Source of the DNA: an uncultured Alphaproteobacteria bacterium
Lineage (GTDB): Bacteria; Pseudomonadota; Alphaproteobacteria; Rhizobiales; Tepidamorphaceae
Length of the DNA stretch: 64,000 bases
Assembly (NCBI GenBank): GCA_963816555.1
Contig: CAWFLD010000012.1
Span: 5,058 to 69,057 of the forward strand
Direction of reading: 5' to 3'
Shown here: positions 39,065 to 45,607 of the stretch, one piece after another
Position numbering within the stretch: the first letter of the stretch is position 1
How the letters are laid out: each line of letters begins with the position of its first letter
Program-made: the position numbers and the translations under genes
Notes under the pieces: generated by a model
What the model saw: the letters and a program-made list of their open reading frames with translations, nothing else
Database searches by the model: none
Told to the model about the DNA's origin: nothing

Positions 39065-39366
39065 GAGGGTACCGACGGAGTGTTCGTGATCACAGTCTTC
39101 GGCATGACCGCACCCGATCGGGCCCACGGCCCCGACCGGGGCGAAAGCCATTGCTGCTTCGGGGGCAATCACAAGGTCGATTTCTTCGAGACATTAACGA
39201 TTTGACAAGTTTACGGGTGAAATCTTCGTCAATCCGGCGCAAATTCCCCGTCGTGAAATGGATGGTGTACGACGTGAGATATCCGCGTCTCATGGCAGCT
39301 AGGGGACCCCTAGGCCTAGGCGGCTTCGCTGCAGGTCCCTCACCATGGACAGGAGAGGCGGCGAAT

Positions 39367-39735
39367 ATGAGCCTGGGCGGGAAACGCGTTCTGATCGTCG
39401 AGGACGAGATGCTTCTCGCGCTCGACCTCGAGGAAGGCCTGCGAGACGCCGGCTGCGAGGTCGTGGGCCCGGCAGGCAGCCTCCGATCGGCCCTGCGGCT
39501 GGTGGAGAGCAGCGAGATCGACGCCGCGATCCTCGACGTGAACCTTGCCGGCGAGCGGGTCTTCCCGGTCGCCCACATTCTCTGCGAGCGCGGCATCCCC
39601 TTCGTCTTCGCCACCGCCTATTCCGGCTCGGACGAACTCTACCCGAGCGAGGTGCGCGACGTGCCGCGGCTGTCCAAGCCCTACACGGTCGGCCAGGCCG
39701 TGGCGACGCTCGACCGGATGGTCACCGACTGCTGA
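39367..39735 (+). CDS. Single-domain response regulator of the FAT GUY type (MrrA/SdrG-like)
   Basis: RVLIVEDEMLLA, DAAILDVNL, IPFVFATAY, LSKPY; next to HWE kinases. Confidence 0.88.
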   Translation: MSLGGKRVLIVEDEMLLALDLEEGLRDAGCEVVGPAGSLRSALRLVESSEIDAAILDVNLAGERVFPVAHILCERGIPFVFATAYSGSDELYPSEVRDVPRLSKPYTVGQAVATLDRMVTDC

Positions 39736-39748
39736 CGCGGTCTGCCGC

Positions 39749-41785
39749 TCACGCGGCGGCCTCGGCTTCGTCCTGCGCCACCGGGTGCAGCGGGATGACG
39801 AAGCGATAGCAGACGCCGCGGCTCTTCCAGTCGACATGCGCGGCGCCATCGTGCTGATGCGCCACCGCCCGCGTCAGGAAGGTCATCCCGAAGCCGCGCT
39901 TCGACGGCTTCTCGACCTTCCGGCCCGCATCCTCGTCCCACTCGAAGACGAGCTGCTCGGCCCCCTGCGGCGCCTCCCCCTCCATCGCCTCGACATGCGC
40001 ACGCAGCACGATGTGGCCGCGATCGTTGGAGAGCGCCCCGTATTTCGACGCGTTCGTCGCCAGCTCGTTGACGAGCAGCGCCACGGTCTGCGTCTCGGCC
40101 GAGCTCAGCCTCTGCGGCGGCACGTCGATCTCGATGCGGTCGCCGGCCTCGGCGGAATAGGGCCCGAGCGTCGCGGTCACGAGGTCCTTCAGGTCGGCGC
40201 CGGCCCAGCTCGTCTTGAAGAGATGGTCGTGCGCCAGCGCCAGCGCGTGCAGCCGGCTCTGGTAGAGGACCATGAAGCTCGGCAGGTCGCCGACATAGCG
40301 CGCCGTCTGGTCGGCGAGGCTGCGCGCGAGCTGCAGCGTGTTCTTCACCCGGTGCGCCAGCTCGCGGACGAGAAGCTGGCGCGCCTCCTCGGCCTGCTTG
40401 CGCGGCGTCACGTCCTGCACCACGGCGACGATCCACACGGGGCGCCCGACCGGATCGCGCAGCACCGTCGCACTCACCTCCCCCCACAGCTCCTCGCCGG
40501 AGCTCGTGAGGAAGCGCCGTTCGGCGAAATAGGAATCGCGCTCCCCGCGCAGCAGCTCCTCGAAGCCGGGATCGGGCGAGCCTCCCGGCTCGTCGCGGAG
40601 CACGGTCCGGAAGGTCCGCTGCTCGAGCTCGGAGCGCTCGTAGCCGAGCATCGCGCAGAGCCGCAGATTGACGCGCCGGAAATGGCCGGTGCCCGGCACG
40701 AGCTCGCACTTGCCCGCGCCGCCCTCCTCGAACAGCGCCCGGAACTCGGCGGTGCTGCGCTGCAGGGCGGCGGTCTGCCGGTCGACCGCCCGCTGCAGGT
40801 CGTCGGAGATCAGCAGATGGTGGCCGCGGTCGGCGAACAGGCCGATGAGGCCGGTCAGGATGAGGCCGCCGAGCAGGGTGAGGCCGGCGAGCTCGTAGAC
40901 GCCGGCATAGGAGACCGGCACGGCGACCTCCCACTCGCGGCCCGCCACGACGAGGCGCGCCATGACGAGATCGTCGCCCTGGTAGGCCGGCTCTCCCGGC
41001 AGGGGAAACAGCCGGCGCGGGTGGTCCCGGTCGGTCACGTCGGCGATCAGGGCGATGTCCGGCGCGGCGCGGCGCACGCGGCCCCGCGTCAGGAGGTTGT
41101 CGAGCGCGAGGACCGCGCCGACGAGCGGCTGCTCGCCGACCCCGCTCTGCCGCCCCGGCTCGACGGGCAGGACGAGCGCGACGAACGGCGAGCCCGCGAC
41201 CTCGACGACGGGGGTCATGCTCACCGTGCCGGTGGCGCTGGCGCGCGCGGCCGCCACGCGCAGGTCGGCCTCGCCGAGAAAGTCGACGCCCTCGAGAAAG
41301 CGCAGCCGCGCGTCGCCGGAATAGTAGGCGACGGGCTGGTAGGTCGGCCGGTTGCCGGCAGAGACGCGCTCGCCGCCGTCGCGCAGATCGGACACCGTGA
41401 CGCCGGTCGGGAGGAAGGTGCGCTCGAATGCCGCACGGTCCGCCCCCGCGACGACCGGCATCCAGATCAGCGAATCGACGATCGGCTGCGGCCCGAGCGA
41501 GGCGGTGAAGCTTTCGAACTGCTCGCGCGTCGGCGTCTCCGATCCGCGCAGCCGGCCGGCGGTCGCCCGCAGGTAGGCGTGGGCGAGCCCGACACGCTGG
41601 CGCAGCGCGTCGGCGAGGTCGGAGGCCTGGAGCTCGGCGACCGCATGGGCGCTGTGCCGCCCCTGCGCGAAGACGATGCACGAGACGAGGACGGCGATCA
41701 GGACACCGACGAGGAGGGCAACCCTGGCCGTCGACGACACGCCGGACGCGCCGCGGCGGAACGCGTGCAGCCTCATGTGGCGCAT
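39749..41785 (-). CDS. Membrane sensor histidine kinase, CHASE-PAS-HWE
   Basis: TM-CHASE-like region (WMPVV...RAAFE, GVDF, VAGREW)-TM, PAS/PAC (DVTPRK), H box ELAHRVKN, ELATNASKYGAL, WDE. Confidence 0.87.
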   Translation of the reverse strand: MRHMRLHAFRRGASGVSSTARVALLVGVLIAVLVSCIVFAQGRHSAHAVAELQASDLADALRQRVGLAHAYLRATAGRLRGSETPTREQFESFTASLGPQPIVDSLIWMPVVAGADRAAFERTFLPTGVTVSDLRDGGERVSAGNRPTYQPVAYYSGDARLRFLEGVDFLGEADLRVAAARASATGTVSMTPVVEVAGSPFVALVLPVEPGRQSGVGEQPLVGAVLALDNLLTRGRVRRAAPDIALIADVTDRDHPRRLFPLPGEPAYQGDDLVMARLVVAGREWEVAVPVSYAGVYELAGLTLLGGLILTGLIGLFADRGHHLLISDDLQRAVDRQTAALQRSTAEFRALFEEGGAGKCELVPGTGHFRRVNLRLCAMLGYERSELEQRTFRTVLRDEPGGSPDPGFEELLRGERDSYFAERRFLTSSGEELWGEVSATVLRDPVGRPVWIVAVVQDVTPRKQAEEARQLLVRELAHRVKNTLQLARSLADQTARYVGDLPSFMVLYQSRLHALALAHDHLFKTSWAGADLKDLVTATLGPYSAEAGDRIEIDVPPQRLSSAETQTVALLVNELATNASKYGALSNDRGHIVLRAHVEAMEGEAPQGAEQLVFEWDEDAGRKVEKPSKRGFGMTFLTRAVAHQHDGAAHVDWKSRGVCYRFVIPLHPVAQDEAEAAA

Positions 41786-41968
41786 CGGCGGTTCCCGGTT
41801 CCCGCGCCCGCCGCCGGACGAACCTCGCTGTCAGGGTGAAACGGCACGTGATGCGGGCTCCGTGTCGGCGGGAAGGCAGCCCCCTCCGGCACGGCCTTGC
41901 GGCACCTGGAGGCTATGGGAAGTTAGTGAGGCCACATCGGTCGGGCAAGTTTTGGGCAGAGGCGTGTC

Positions 41969-43003
41969 CTAGAGCAGGGTCCGCTCCGGCGCGCAGAGGC
42001 AGTAGGAGACGCCGTCGGGGTCGAATCTCAGCTCGGCGGTTCCGCTCACCGAGGCGGGAACGATCTGCTCCAGCATCAGGCGGCCGAAGCTCGTCGCGCC
42101 GGGCGTGGAGACCGGCGGTCCGCCGCGCTCCTTCCAGCAGAAGACGATCTCGCGCTCGCGGCCCCGCTCCCGGCGGTCCCAGCTTATCTCGACGCGGCCG
42201 CCGCGGCCCGACAGGGCGCCGTAGCGGATCGCGTTCGTCGCGAGCTCGTGCAGGGCGAGGCCGAGATGCTGGGCGGCGTTCGGCGACAGGAAGATGTGCG
42301 GCCCCGAGACGCTGACGCGCGAGCTCGGCCAGTCGGCGTAGAGATTGACCTGGGCGCGCGCCAGCTCGTGCAGCGTGGCGCCGCGCCACTCTTCCTCGGT
42401 GATGATGTCGTGGGCCCGCGCGAGCGACTGCAGCCGGCCGGAGAAGCGCGTCACGAACTGATCGACCGACGGCACGCCGCGCGCCGTCTGCGAGGCGATC
42501 GACTGGATCACCGCCATCAGGTTCTTCGAGCGGTGGGCCAGCTCCCGCAGCAGCACGCGCAGATGCTCCGTCGTCTGGCGGCGGTCGGTGATGTCGACGC
42601 TGACGCAGTTGACGCCGATGACGCCGCCGTCGTCGTTCCGCCACGGATCGATCTTCACGTCGTACCAGCGGGGGCCGTCGCTCTCGGTGCCCATCGACAC
42701 CTCGGTCCACAGCCCCTCGCCGCGGTCGAGCACCTGTCGCTTGATGCCGGCCATGCGCGACCCGAACGGCGTCGGGAACACCTCCTCGTCGGTTCGGCCG
42801 AGGAAGTGCGACGCCGGCAGGTTCTGCGGCGGGTTCACGATCCAGGCGTAGCGAAGGTCTGTGTCCTGGCTGGAGACGGAGATGTTCGAGACCTCGATCG
42901 CCGCCTGCAGTCGACGGATCATCTCGGCCGGCATGGTCTCCGCCCCTTCCCGGTCCTCATTCGCCGCCAGATGCTCCTCTTCGGGACGGGGATCCTCGAC
43001 CAT
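41969..43003 (-). CDS. Cytoplasmic PAS-HWE histidine kinase
   Basis: QDTDLRYAW PAS, DITDRR, ELAHRSKN, LHELATNAIRYGALS, WKERGGP; AGGAG RBS before ATG 43003. Confidence 0.9.
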   Translation of the reverse strand: MVEDPRPEEEHLAANEDREGAETMPAEMIRRLQAAIEVSNISVSSQDTDLRYAWIVNPPQNLPASHFLGRTDEEVFPTPFGSRMAGIKRQVLDRGEGLWTEVSMGTESDGPRWYDVKIDPWRNDDGGVIGVNCVSVDITDRRQTTEHLRVLLRELAHRSKNLMAVIQSIASQTARGVPSVDQFVTRFSGRLQSLARAHDIITEEEWRGATLHELARAQVNLYADWPSSRVSVSGPHIFLSPNAAQHLGLALHELATNAIRYGALSGRGGRVEISWDRRERGREREIVFCWKERGGPPVSTPGATSFGRLMLEQIVPASVSGTAELRFDPDGVSYCLCAPERTLL

Positions 43004-43045
43004 CTCTCCTGACCGTCGTCTGCTGGTGTTGCGCACCCGGCAGAC

Positions 43046-43082: not shown

Positions 43083-43898
43083 CTACGCGGTCTGTCCCTC
43101 GCTGCGCGTGCTCGCCTTGGCCTCGAAGAACAGGGCCTGGCTGATGACCGCGGTGACCATGTCGGGCTGGAACGGCTTGGTGATGAGGAAGGCGGGCTCC
43201 GGCTTCTCGCCGGTCAGCAGGCGCTCGGGATAGGCGGTGATGAAGATCACCGGCACCTGGTAGTCGGTCAGCATCTCGTTGACCGCGTCGAGGCCCGAGC
43301 TGCCGTCGGCCAGCTGGATGTCGGCGAGCACCAGCCCCGGCGGCTGCTTGCGGACCGCCTCGATCGCCTCGGTGTGCGTGCGGGCGATGCCGGAGACGCG
43401 GTGGCCGAGATTGGTCACGAGCGCCTCGATGTCCATCGCGATGATCGGCTCGTCCTCGATGATGAGCACGTCGGTCGCCATCTGCTCGGCGATCTCGGTG
43501 CCGACCTCGTCGATCAGCCGCGACGTCTCCTCGACGGACAGGCTCAGGATCTCGGCCGTCTCCTTGACGGTGAACTCCTCGACCGTGACGAGCAGGAACG
43601 CCTGGCGATGCAGCGGCGCGATCGAGCCGAGCCGGCGGTTGGCGTGCTGCTCGGAGCCCTCGCTGCCGAGATCGCCCTCGAGGTTGAGGTCGATCGACTG
43701 CCACAGGCTGCAGAAGGTCTTGTAGAGGGCGACCCGCATGTCGGTGTCGCGGGGCACGATGGAAGGGTCGGCGACGATCGTCTCGAGGACCGCGGCGACA
43801 TAGGCGTCGCCGCTCGACTGGCTGCCGGTCAACGCCCTGGCGTAGCGCCGGAGATAGGGAATGAGGGCACCGACCTGCTGTGCCATGGACTGCGACAT
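43083..43898 (-). CDS. phyR: Anti-anti-sigma response regulator PhyR
   Basis: Sigma-like N-terminus PYLRRYARALTGSQ, RQAFLL; receiver VLIIEDEPIIA, LADIQLADGSSG, FITAYPERLLTG. Confidence 0.96.
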   Translation of the reverse strand: MSQSMAQQVGALIPYLRRYARALTGSQSSGDAYVAAVLETIVADPSIVPRDTDMRVALYKTFCSLWQSIDLNLEGDLGSEGSEQHANRRLGSIAPLHRQAFLLVTVEEFTVKETAEILSLSVEETSRLIDEVGTEIAEQMATDVLIIEDEPIIAMDIEALVTNLGHRVSGIARTHTEAIEAVRKQPPGLVLADIQLADGSSGLDAVNEMLTDYQVPVIFITAYPERLLTGEKPEPAFLITKPFQPDMVTAVISQALFFEAKASTRSEGQTA

Positions 43899-44140: not shown

Positions 44141-44410
44141 ATGACGATGACGCGATCACGCGAAACAGACCAACCAGCGAGTGAGGACATGTCGACGTCC
44201 TACGATGCCAGTTCGCCCCGGGAAGTCCGCTCCCCGGCGCAAGGCGGCGGAAGCCGCGCACAGCTCGAGCCGCGCGTGCAGTCCGCGCTCGGACGCGAGC
44301 TGCGCGCGATCTATGACGACGTTGTGAGCCAGCCAGTGCCGGATCGCTTCGTCGAACTGTTGAACCAGCTCGACGAGCGGGAATCCAGCGACAAGGGCGA
44401 CAAGCGGTAA
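44141..44410 (+). CDS. nepR: Anti-sigma factor NepR
   Basis: LGRELRAIYDDVVSQPVPDRFVELLNQL; directly upstream of ecfG and divergent from phyR; exact start uncertain. Confidence 0.93.
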   Translation: MTMTRSRETDQPASEDMSTSYDASSPREVRSPAQGGGSRAQLEPRVQSALGRELRAIYDDVVSQPVPDRFVELLNQLDERESSDKGDKR

Positions 44411-44456: not shown

Positions 44457-45014
44457 ATGGCCATATCGGCGGAACTTCGCCAACAACTGCTGGATCTGAT
44501 ACCGAGCCTGCGCGGCTTTGCCGTGTCGCTTGCCGGCGACACCGAGCGCGGCGACGATCTCGTCCAGGAGACCCTCGTGAAGGCATGGGCCAATTTCGGC
44601 TCGTTCACCGAAGGGACGAACCTGCGCGCCTGGCTCTTCACCATCCTGCGCAACGAATTCTACTCGCAGATGCGCAAGCGCGGCCGCGAGGTCGAGGATG
44701 TCGACGGCATCCATGCGGCGCGGCTGGCGGTGGCGCCGTCGCAGCAGTCGCAGGTCGATCTGTCGCACCTGCGCAAGGCGCTCAACGAGATCCCCGCCGA
44801 CCAGCGCGAGGCGCTCGTCCTCGTCGCCGCCTCCGGGTTCTCCTACGAGGAGGCGGCCGAGATCTGCGGCTGCGCGGTCGGCACGATCAAGAGCCGCGTC
44901 AACCGCGCCCGCACGCGGCTGAGCCAGATCATGCAGGTCGAGGAAGAGGGCCAGTCCTTCGGGCCCGACGAGGTCAGCGAGGCCGTCGTCGGCGCGAACG
45001 CGGCGACCCGCTGA
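44457..45014 (+). CDS. ecfG: General stress response ECF sigma factor EcfG (SigT/RpoE2 type)
   Basis: IPSLRGFAVSL, DDLVQETLVKAW, GTNLRAWLFTILRN, SYEEAAEICGCAVGTIKSRVNRAR. Confidence 0.95.
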   Translation: MAISAELRQQLLDLIPSLRGFAVSLAGDTERGDDLVQETLVKAWANFGSFTEGTNLRAWLFTILRNEFYSQMRKRGREVEDVDGIHAARLAVAPSQQSQVDLSHLRKALNEIPADQREALVLVAASGFSYEEAAEICGCAVGTIKSRVNRARTRLSQIMQVEEEGQSFGPDEVSEAVVGANAATR

Positions 45015-45077
45015 GGCGGGGAGCCGGACCGGCTCCTCGAGCTCCTCGAGCGCTCACGACGTTCCGCACGAGAGTTG

Positions 45078-45107
45078 AAAGGCACGGCCGCCCGCCGTGC
45101 CTTTTTT
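45078..45107 (+). terminator. Intrinsic terminator after ecfG (possibly bidirectional)
   Basis: AAAGGCACGG-CCGCCCG-CCGTGCCTTTTTT. Confidence 0.8.
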
Positions 45108-45229
45108 GTTGCGCGTCCGCGCTCCCCCGCGCGGACGCGCCACGTGCCGTGGCGTGACGCAGGTTGAGCGGACGCGAAGGAAAGTGTGGAGGATCGGGGT
45201 GCGGGCACCGGGCCCTGCGAGCGTCTCCA

Positions 45230-45312
45230 CAAATGAAGCGGCCCGCAGCCGGGGGGAAGCTGCGGGCCGTAGAAACGGACGGTGGGGGCCGTCCGCAGTG
45301 TGGAGGGGCACC
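45230..45312 (-). ncRNA. Candidate EcfG-dependent small RNA with two C-rich-loop hairpins (GsrN-like)
   Basis: Downstream of a minus-strand GGAAC-N16-GGTT. Hairpins GCGGACGG-CCCCCA-CCGTCCGT and CGGCCCGCAGC-TTCCCCCCG-GCTGCGGGCCG, then CTTCATTT; no credible ORF. Ends are estimates. Confidence 0.6.
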
Positions 45313-45317
45313 TAAAT

Positions 45318-45342
45318 AACCGCGGAAGGCGCGCCCGGTTCC
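45318..45342 (-). promoter_or_regulatory. EcfG-type promoter for the candidate sRNA
   Basis: Minus strand reads GGAAC-CGGGCGCGCCTTCCGC-GGTT (N16). Confidence 0.65.
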
Positions 45343-45379
45343 GGGGGGCTGCAATTTTTTTTCGCACCTCCGAAACGCA

Positions 45380-45405
45380 GGAACTTCTTCCTCTTCAGCC
45401 TCGTT
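45380..45405 (+). promoter_or_regulatory. EcfG-type promoter for the DUF3309 gene
   Basis: GGAAC-N17-CGTT, 50 bp upstream of ATG 45455. Confidence 0.75.
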
Positions 45406-45454
45406 CCGTCGGCGCCTTCGGCCGATCCAGAACAACAAGGCATGGAGCCCCAGA

Positions 45455-45607
45455 ATGCTCGAGACCATCCTGATCATCGTTCTCATCCTGATCCTGCTCG
45501 GCGCCCTTCCGACGTGGCCCTACAGCCGCGGCTGGGGCTACGTGCCGAGCGGCATCACGACGATCCTGCTGATCATCCTGATCATCTACCTGCTGCAGGC
45601 CGCCTGA
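45455..45607 (+). CDS. DUF3309 family small membrane protein (50 aa)
   Basis: Not in the ORF track. MLETILIIVLILILLGALPTWPYSRGWGYVPSGITTILLIILIIYLLQAA; GGAG RBS. Confidence 0.88.
   Translation: MLETILIIVLILILLGALPTWPYSRGWGYVPSGITTILLIILIIYLLQAA

Follow-up and report, generated by a model that had tools for sequence, protein, structure and literature searches.

We identified, in the 446-nt gap between the ECF sigma factor gene ecfG and a DUF3309 gene, a minus-strand element of ~82 nt (45311-45230) that is very likely transcribed and that probably acts as a stand-alone, EcfG-driven small RNA (sRNA), which would pair in trans through C-rich segments with G-rich mRNA leaders. Positions are those of the window, that is, the whole 64,000-nt stretch of alphaproteobacterial DNA analysed here, which belongs to a genome of 4.79 Mb (G000); G001 denotes a genome of the same genus and G007 one from another genus of the family. 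Judged from sequence comparison, the element is likely a real and narrowly distributed new sequence family of an RNA kind that has already been described. The class itself is described and predicted for Rhizobiales in the available text of PMC5869019 and PMC3892343, and the novelty thus lies in the sequence family rather than in the kind; word searches of the literature, with supplements and most subscription journals (possible places of sRNA catalogues) outside their reach, returned no description of this sequence. If real, the element adds another sequence-unrelated family to the post-transcriptional arm of the alphaproteobacterial general stress response, among whose sRNAs GsrN alone has known targets in the literature examined. 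It would also support the idea that a module of EcfG promoter, C-rich seed and terminator recurs across Rhizobiales with little sequence kinship.

The gap is preceded by phyR, encoding the anti-anti-sigma response regulator (43083-43898, minus strand; PF22029, PF22233 and PF00072), nepR, encoding the anti-sigma factor (44141-44410, plus strand; PF18557), and ecfG, which sits after nepR (44457-45014, plus strand; Pfam Sigma70_r2 and Sigma70_r4_2). On its other side lies the DUF3309 small membrane-protein gene (45455-45607, plus strand; PF11752), the neighbour common to G000, G001 and G007, whose consensus EcfG-type promoter, GGAAC-N17-CGTT (45380-45405, plus strand), occurs in each of these genomes and is arranged back to back with the promoter of the candidate RNA. 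An intrinsic-terminator-like hairpin follows the nepR-ecfG unit (45078-45110, plus strand). Its U-tract is on the plus strand, behind ecfG, with just UUU after the hairpin (45107-45078) on the minus strand, and its orientation in G001 is identical; it is best read from its sequence as the terminator of ecfG itself, and minus-strand read-through might also end there. Upstream of phyR, the stress locus continues with a lone receiver-domain gene, a CHASE-PAS-HWE kinase gene and a PAS-HWE kinase gene (39151-43036), in an order identical to that of G001.

The motifs and hairpins that a first-pass annotation of this DNA had reported were all in place when read from the sequence. On the minus strand, GGAAC (45342-45338) is followed by a 16-nt spacer and GGTT (45321-45318). 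The -35 box GGAACC (45337-45342) is invariant in the three genomes, and the -10 box (45318-45321), which is non-consensus in the window, reads TGTT in G001 and the consensus CGTT in G007; the respective promoters are GGAAC-N16-GGTT, GGAAC-N17-TGTT and GGAAC-N16-CGTT. From the -10 box to a conserved GTGCCCC the distance is 6 nt in every case, and the promoter would place the start at 45312-45309; the predicted core of the RNA is 45230-45311. The promoter motif alone is not beyond chance, since GGAAC-N16/17-GGTT occurs 40 times in the genome and its wrong-spacer versions 41 and 34 times, so that support for the promoter comes from its conservation. An A/T tract, AAAAAAAATT, lies 5' of the -35 box (45353-45362, minus strand), with an A-tract at the same place in the three homologues, and is possibly an UP-like element.

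The 5' segment of the RNA, GGUGCCCCUCCACAC (45298-45312, minus strand), is invariant in 15 of 15 columns among the three sequences and includes the anti-Shine-Dalgarno core CCUCC; CCCCUCCACACU lies at 45308-45297. We predict this segment to be the main seed, and its 15 invariant nucleotides offer a clean handle for seed mutagenesis. Hairpin 1 (45275-45296, minus strand), as read from the sequence, has 8 bp with an outer G-U pair and the loop CCCCCA. Hairpin 2 (45239-45269, minus strand), detected as a terminator-like site, has 11 bp and the C-rich loop UUCCCCCCG; a folding program adds a U-G pair, which gives 12 bp and the loop UCCCCCC. Directly after it comes CUUCAUUU (45238-45231), within a weak U-tail, CUUCAUUUG (45230-45238, minus strand), that is replaced by a strong one, UUUCUUUUUC, in G001 and by AACCAUCU in G007, where a U-tail after hairpin 2 is absent. 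The earlier claim of two C-rich loops stood for loop 2, which is present in all three genomes (UUCCUCCCCCAC in G007), but not for loop 1, which is CCCCCA in G000 and G001 and shortened to GCCA in G007 with its stem retained. Moreover, the most conserved C-rich part is the 5' segment before the hairpins, not the loops on which the annotation had laid weight.

Conservation of the promoter and hairpins in related genomes, on which that annotation had staked its proposal, was borne out within a narrow range. BLASTN of the 446-nt gap against 41 related genomes gave two meaningful matches, of which the best, in G001, is restricted to window 45360-45231 (85%, E 6.9e-34) and the other, in G007, is a part match (E 2.5e-7). 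A promoter-plus-5'-end pattern was found in three of the 23 family genomes (G000, G001 and G007), and its reversed control gave no matches. In the aligned homologues the A-tract, GGAACC, xGTT, the first 15 nt and both stems are kept, whereas the spacer, flanks and reading frames diverge. A covariance model built from the three homologues scores 105, 109 and 79 bits on its own members, by construction, and at most 33 bits in the other family genomes; 20 of the 23 family genomes are without a close homologue, and none of ten weak matches carries the EcfG motif. Across 150 genomes of the order, model R1 exceeded 35.9 bits in G000 alone, and the EcfG motif lay upstream at three of the 30 model-R1 loci examined (G000, G031 and G110). 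A genome-contig collection yielded 21 matches, one with the RNA body (L032, the same DNA as the G007 locus) and 20 chance-like; a metagenome-contig collection yielded two, both within unrelated coding frames, and a plasmid collection scanned for the element none. The DUF3309 gene occurs in 13 of the 23 family genomes, and the divergent element stands at three of these 13. The annotation had placed the RNA convergent to ecfG, which holds in G000 and G001 but not in G007, where the element (contig C247) and the ecfG orthologue (contig C361) lie on separate contigs and the element is still back to back with the DUF3309 gene and its EcfG promoter.

Our sequence comparison further shows that the conserved unit is the ~82-nt element with its promoter (45311-45230), and not the longer form to 45078 that had also been suggested. 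The longer form is not conserved and its closing hairpin is best read as the ecfG terminator, although read-through of the weak tail CUUCAUUUG is possible. Most of the stretch 45230-45110 is missing in G001, where the ecfG terminator follows within ~40 nt. The recurrence of CCUCCACACU that had been noted at 45192-45183 is present, but it lies within a ~90-100-nt insertion missing from G001 and is private to the window genome, as is UGUGGAG (45225-45231, minus strand), which is complementary to the CUCCACA of the seed and of the second seed copy. The window has two copies of CCTCCACACT where 0.05 would be expected, and the 4.79-Mb genome has no others. The core and the extension are single-copy in that genome, and we therefore rejected a reading of them as repeat elements. 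On the plus strand, the same genome-specific insertion contains a single-copy hairpin with the loop UCCCCC (45116-45139), after which another hairpin comes. Read on that strand, the second copy of the seed gives GGAGG, and 6 nt further on a GTG at 45199 begins a frame of ~38 codons that lies antisense to the RNA (region 45188-45315); this region is missing from G001, and the frame is without a Pfam match.

The 82-nt core folds far better than expected from its composition (z -6.57, with 0 of 200 shuffles as good), and the cores of G000, G001 and G007 fold alike, with z-scores of -6.57, -7.51 and -6.19, respectively. Folding does not fix the strand, because both strands fold about equally (z -5.80 for minus and -5.13 for plus). 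In the three cores, CCCCUCCACAC has a predicted mean unpaired probability of 0.73-0.74 and UCCCCC of loop 2 one of 1.0. Hairpin 2 has 97% of its cells paired across the homologues and shows one compensatory double change, CG to UA; the covariation that had been proposed as a check thus has one pair to its credit, but the score is not significant (159 of 500 shuffles reach it) because only three homologues are at hand. Alignment A2 puts hairpin 1 of G007 one column off, and the pair counts of helix 1 therefore understate its pairing. The three indels that run X2 shows at a single contig depth (3.62) spare the stems: one is in loop 2 (45258) and two are in the linker (45270 and 45273). The cores themselves form a 5' hairpin of at most 3 bp, and the helices that close with downstream bases vary between genomes. 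Scored on extended sequence, predicted seed accessibility in the window genome goes from 0.74 in the core to 0.24 with 40 downstream bases and back to 0.61 in the long form; with downstream bases it goes down to 0.45 in G007, but no further than 0.60 in G001, whose U-tail is strong.

In the established pathway, as given in the available part of PMC3892343, stress activates PhyR, which removes NepR from EcfG. We propose that under general stress EcfG would transcribe the DUF3309 gene and the candidate RNA from their back-to-back promoters, and that the RNA would start near 45311 and terminate after hairpin 2. The exposed CCCCUCCACAC, together with the C-rich terminator loop UCCCCC, would then pair with G-rich mRNA leaders, probably with the assistance of Hfq; phyR-nepR-ecfG and hfq are both encoded in the window genome, and hfq is present in all three genomes. 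The main outcome may be translational repression at GGAGGGG-type ribosome-binding sites, which we favor because the seed carries the anti-Shine-Dalgarno core CCUCC, and an alternative outcome would be activation by leader opening, as performed by GsrN on katG and osrP.

Target prediction, another check that had been proposed, stayed at chance level for the 5' seed: over 4571 predicted leaders, the 12-nt and 15-nt 5' seeds did no better than in coding windows or than shuffled seeds did. At or below -24 kcal/mol, 17 of the 4571 leaders and 19 of 3951 coding windows were hit, and the real seed had 75 matches against 50-171 for shuffled seeds. Such chance-level scans are usual for short GC-rich seeds. 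Four top candidates were followed, and in one of them, a YkuD L,D-transpeptidase gene, the site (CUGGAGGGGCA at the ribosome-binding site) is retained in G001 (-21.7); the G007 gene was not found with that query. In G005, a genome without this RNA, the YkuD gene gives -22.9 at another position, and ordinary ribosome-binding-site conservation could explain the retention in G001. Among the other three, the site is lost for groES (-25.0 in G000, -14.1 in G001 and -14.8 in G007) and for a lumazine-binding-domain gene (from -30.0 to -10.1 in G001), and a livH-like gene has only a bulged site (-21.2). Of 49 listed genes that are preceded by a consensus EcfG motif, a single small one was conspicuous (-24.6 kcal/mol). 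Separately, the groES leader (contig C4 of G000, 1168314-1168513; L178) carries an inverted repeat, TTGGCACTC-N9-GAGTGCTAA, that is present in most relatives' groES leaders and that we take to be CIRCE-like and ordinary.

Several other explanations have to be weighed against a free sRNA. The element might by origin be a structured 5' leader (attenuator) of an EcfG-driven mRNA, orphaned in G000 and G001, where it may still release a short RNA. This is unlikely, since neither G000 nor G001 has a gene before the convergent ecfG terminator and yet the sequence is almost unchanged, and since the U-tail is strong in G001; what speaks for it comes from G007, in which a same-strand 128-aa gene, with PF07332 and receiver-domain genes behind it, follows ~160 nt 3' of the element start, the U-tail after hairpin 2 is missing, and the 5' GUGCCCCU is pairable with a downstream AGGGGCA. 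However, the 128-aa and holin-like proteins of G007 have no tblastn match at E 1e-3 in G000. These G007 genes (L086) are the 128-aa gene (2195-2581), a holin-X-like PF07332 membrane gene (1767-2174) and the receiver-domain gene (1048-1536), all on the minus strand; the 128-aa protein, whose Pfam result is a sub-threshold apolipoprotein match only, is presumably ElaB/YqjD (DUF883)-like. A bolder model is a separately evolved stress sRNA gated by its own termination, in which a stop after hairpin 2 frees the 5' anti-Shine-Dalgarno seed and, upon read-through, the seed is sequestered by an anti-seed, which would be UGUGGAG for the window genome and AGGGGCA for G007; the duplicated seed copy would free the seed again in the window genome, and the G007 element would double as a stress-operon leader. 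We consider this model unlikely, based as it is on the predicted seed accessibilities of three sequences and noticed after the fact. Were it true, the sRNA would have been caught in transition between a 5' leader and a free regulator, and it would be one of many convergent C-rich RNAs behind A-tract-boosted EcfG promoters in Rhizobiales.

If the RNA instead bound proteins (Hfq, a cold-shock or a DUF1127-type protein) or acted as a sponge for G-rich sRNAs, its repeated C-rich single-stranded motifs and the lack of a convincing mRNA target in our scans would both be accounted for; we think it quite unlikely, given that the characterised RNAs with such loops (GsrN and, in the available text of PMC6486639, 6C) pair with mRNAs. 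Still less likely is a role in cis, with minus-strand transcription running into the 3' end of nepR-ecfG as antisense or transcriptional interference and exerting negative feedback. The element is indeed convergent with ecfG in G000 and G001, the U-tail of G000 is weak, and the shared hairpin is trailed on the minus strand by no more than UUU, but the G007 element and ecfG orthologue are on different contigs, the strong U-tail of G001 precedes the ecfG terminator, and the 5' 15 nt are invariant although antisense action does not demand that the sequence be conserved. It is highly improbable that the transcript is a leaderless mRNA for a small protein from the GTG at 45311 (MPLHT...), even though all three genomes have a GTG where the start is predicted and share VPLHT(A/D) over the first six codons. 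The 85-codon frame, which exists despite the earlier statement that the promoter points at no credible ORF, is without a Pfam match and is not a conserved protein gene, because its G001 counterpart goes out of frame beyond codon 13 and its G007 counterpart differs beyond codon 6, giving three different peptides (85, at least 60 and 42 aa); hairpin 2 is read in three different frames, and third codon positions are among the invariant 5' bases, so that the statement holds in substance. The plus-strand frame 45097-45315 and the minus-strand frames had no Pfam match. Finally, that there is no functional RNA at all, and only a pair of palindromes (terminator-like or DNA-level) next to a promoter motif due to chance, has hardly any probability left. 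The motif in its GGTT form is not enriched in the genome, both strands fold alike, and two RNA runs have no cover over 45072-45449 and merely distant ecfG-like pieces, the organism not being evident in them, which makes them uninformative; among the public runs found, none contains half of the locus words (maximum 0.21, with six RNA runs at 5-7%). Conservation, however, is limited to the promoter boxes and the body, in two genera, the element is single-copy, and ecfG has its own terminator already.

The reading as a free EcfG-driven sRNA gains from comparison with known systems. GsrN (CCNA_R0081) of Caulobacter crescentus, defined by Tien et al. 2018 (PMC5869019), works via a C-rich loop according to the available text, with BLAST homologues reported there only in Caulobacteraceae, and it activates osrP via its C-rich loop in the available part of bioRxiv 10.1101/344820. 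As far as these sources go, our candidate shares with it an EcfG/SigT-type promoter with an A-tract in front, a start (here predicted) 6-8 nt after the -10 box, a length of ~80-105 nt, an exposed C-rich stretch, a 3' terminator-like hairpin and, usually, a place near phyR-nepR-ecfG. The gsrN promoter in the gene blocks of PMC5869019, available in part, has the layout found here (A-tract, GGAACC, CGTT, 6 nt, GTGC) and is preceded by AAAAAAAT at a distance like that of the A/T tract in the window. The features by which Tien et al. 2018 mark the kind are a near-consensus EcfG site, present in the three homologues, proximity to the locus, found directly after ecfG in G000 and G001 and off the ecfG contig in G007, and an exposed 5' C-rich segment, here by prediction (0.73-0.74 unpaired, and 1.0 for loop 2). 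GsrN differs in being processed and in having its C6 tract in a loop that a long 5' stem closes, whereas the candidate has a C-rich, nearly free 5' end without a long 5' closing stem and a terminator loop that is itself C-rich.

No kinship in sequence accompanies this likeness. At gathering scores, Rfam gave no match in the window, and at E<=10 sub-threshold matches were to 6C, ar14, sX13, Scr3202 and CC1840. The GsrN model RF01529 (cut-off 50 bits) had no match at the locus in G000, G001 or G007 and is absent from the E<=10 list of the gap; its best score anywhere in G000 is 24.2 bits, on another contig, and a Caulobacter vibrioides control is above the cut-off. Alignment to an RF01529 member was no better than to shuffles (354 of 500). 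We equate RF01529 ('CC3552') with GsrN on two grounds: the GACGCCCCCC(C)GAC loop of the gene blocks in PMC5869019 recurs in its member L243, and the model has 106 positions. The first-pass annotation had left the choice between a GsrN-like and an independently evolved RNA, and the second fits, since a GsrN-like design comes without a detectable sequence relation.

A similar conclusion applies, alongside the putative GsrN homologues of Rhizobiaceae in Tien et al. 2018, to ReC64 of Rhizobium etli, an EcfG-dependent RNA of 88 nt by Northern at the stress locus (Jans et al. 2013, PMC3892343, available in part), with which the candidate shares a stress-response locus of the same order and an EcfG-type promoter. 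The ReC64 orthologue-like elements L101 and L236, which match that paper's primers, contain several C-rich modules, and the loop of their terminator is C-rich as well. Yet the alignment score is 15 against a shuffle mean of 16.5 (374 of 500 shuffles), model R1 does not list the ReC64-like positions of either locus, and the ReC64 type has a long 5' closing stem and lies behind a kinase gene, unlike the candidate, which is back to back with DUF3309. Cuckoo/ar14 RNAs (RF02344), defined in the available text of Reinkensmeier and Giegerich 2015 (PMC4615179) by a CCUCCUCCC motif in each hairpin loop, likewise have adjacent hairpins with C-rich, anti-Shine-Dalgarno-like loops, and hairpin 2 resembles the last ar14 hairpin; however, the score is 25.9 bits against a gathering score of 58.8, CCUCCUCCC is in no loop of the candidate, and the EcfG-type promoter and the neighborhood are different. 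The 6C RNA of Actinobacteria (RF01066) also shows a pair of hairpins side by side whose loops are C-rich, but the scores of 28.8 bits for the window and 33.9 for G001 lie below its gathering score of 47, the phylum is another one, and the first C-loop is not conserved in G007. Specialists would be unsurprised by the candidate, as such RNAs were predicted in 2018, with one confirmed in Rhizobium etli: the available text of PMC5869019 predicts GsrN-like RNAs at stress loci in Rhizobium, Sinorhizobium, Brucella, Agrobacterium, Rhodopseudomonas and Bradyrhizobium.

To place the candidate among such RNAs, we surveyed 99 loci, comprising 98 around NepR matches (picked among 150 listed and spread over families) and the G007 contig, with the 2-kb stub L201 excluded. 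An EcfG motif followed by a C-rich stretch and a terminator was found at 17 of the 99 loci, spread over 10 of 28 families, and each of eight control motifs gave 0-2 such loci out of 99. Four loci (L086, L087, L198 and L199) had been included on account of this RNA or its model; when they are set aside, 14 of 95 loci remain, and the number of families is unchanged at 10. L101 and L236, which carry the ReC64 primer sequences, serve as a positive control; the other candidates stand by the screen alone, and L202 at least is doubtful. Ten of these loci had no sRNA family at the Rfam gathering score. The families of L141 and L134 have a terminator hairpin similar to that of the candidate RNA (1 and 3 of 500 shuffles), but common descent is not shown, because C-loop terminators also occur without an EcfG motif and shuffles lose hairpin symmetry.

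Other unannotated EcfG-promoter, C-rich, terminator-bounded candidates at stress loci lie on the minus strand at L083 (~9523, G005), L110 (9564 and 9443, G029), L200 (1430), L114 (8384), L092 (8603), L113 (9915) and L141 (9574), and on the plus strand at L230 (4281), L098 (9426), L138 (11754), L091 (5644) and L134 (4164). They come from many families, and a closing stem of the GsrN/ReC64 kind is seen in most; the two of G029 are in tandem, and G005, which is of the window's own family, has one of another type than the window's. An A/T tract 6-26 nt before GGAAC precedes 17 of 20 candidate sRNA promoters, compared with 126 of the 377 remaining strict EcfG motifs at these loci, a comparison set that includes chance motifs in coding DNA. 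The promoters compared are those of L083, L086, L087, L092, L101, L110, L113, L114, L121, L131, L134, L138, L141, L199, L200, L230 and L236 and of the window (45353-45362); the 20 were hand-picked (four doubtful rows were removed, L086 was put in, and the pattern did not catch L215), and some are kin. We regard an UP-like element at stress sRNA promoters as a lead rather than a result.

Further structured elements were noticed as well. A two-hairpin element beginning with ACACUGGAAGCCGCACCC occurs near nepR at L107 (5418-5506, minus strand), L108 (8579-8669, plus), L116 (8508-8601, plus) and L234 (8438-8533, plus); the genomes that conserve it are four, all of family f28 and no fewer than three of genus g37, and it failed the EcfG/C-rich/terminator screen. 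Terminator elements with a C-rich loop and without an EcfG motif were seen at L004 (1490-1563, minus strand), L143, L145 and L151, some of which presumably resemble AbcR/cuckoo-type RNAs.
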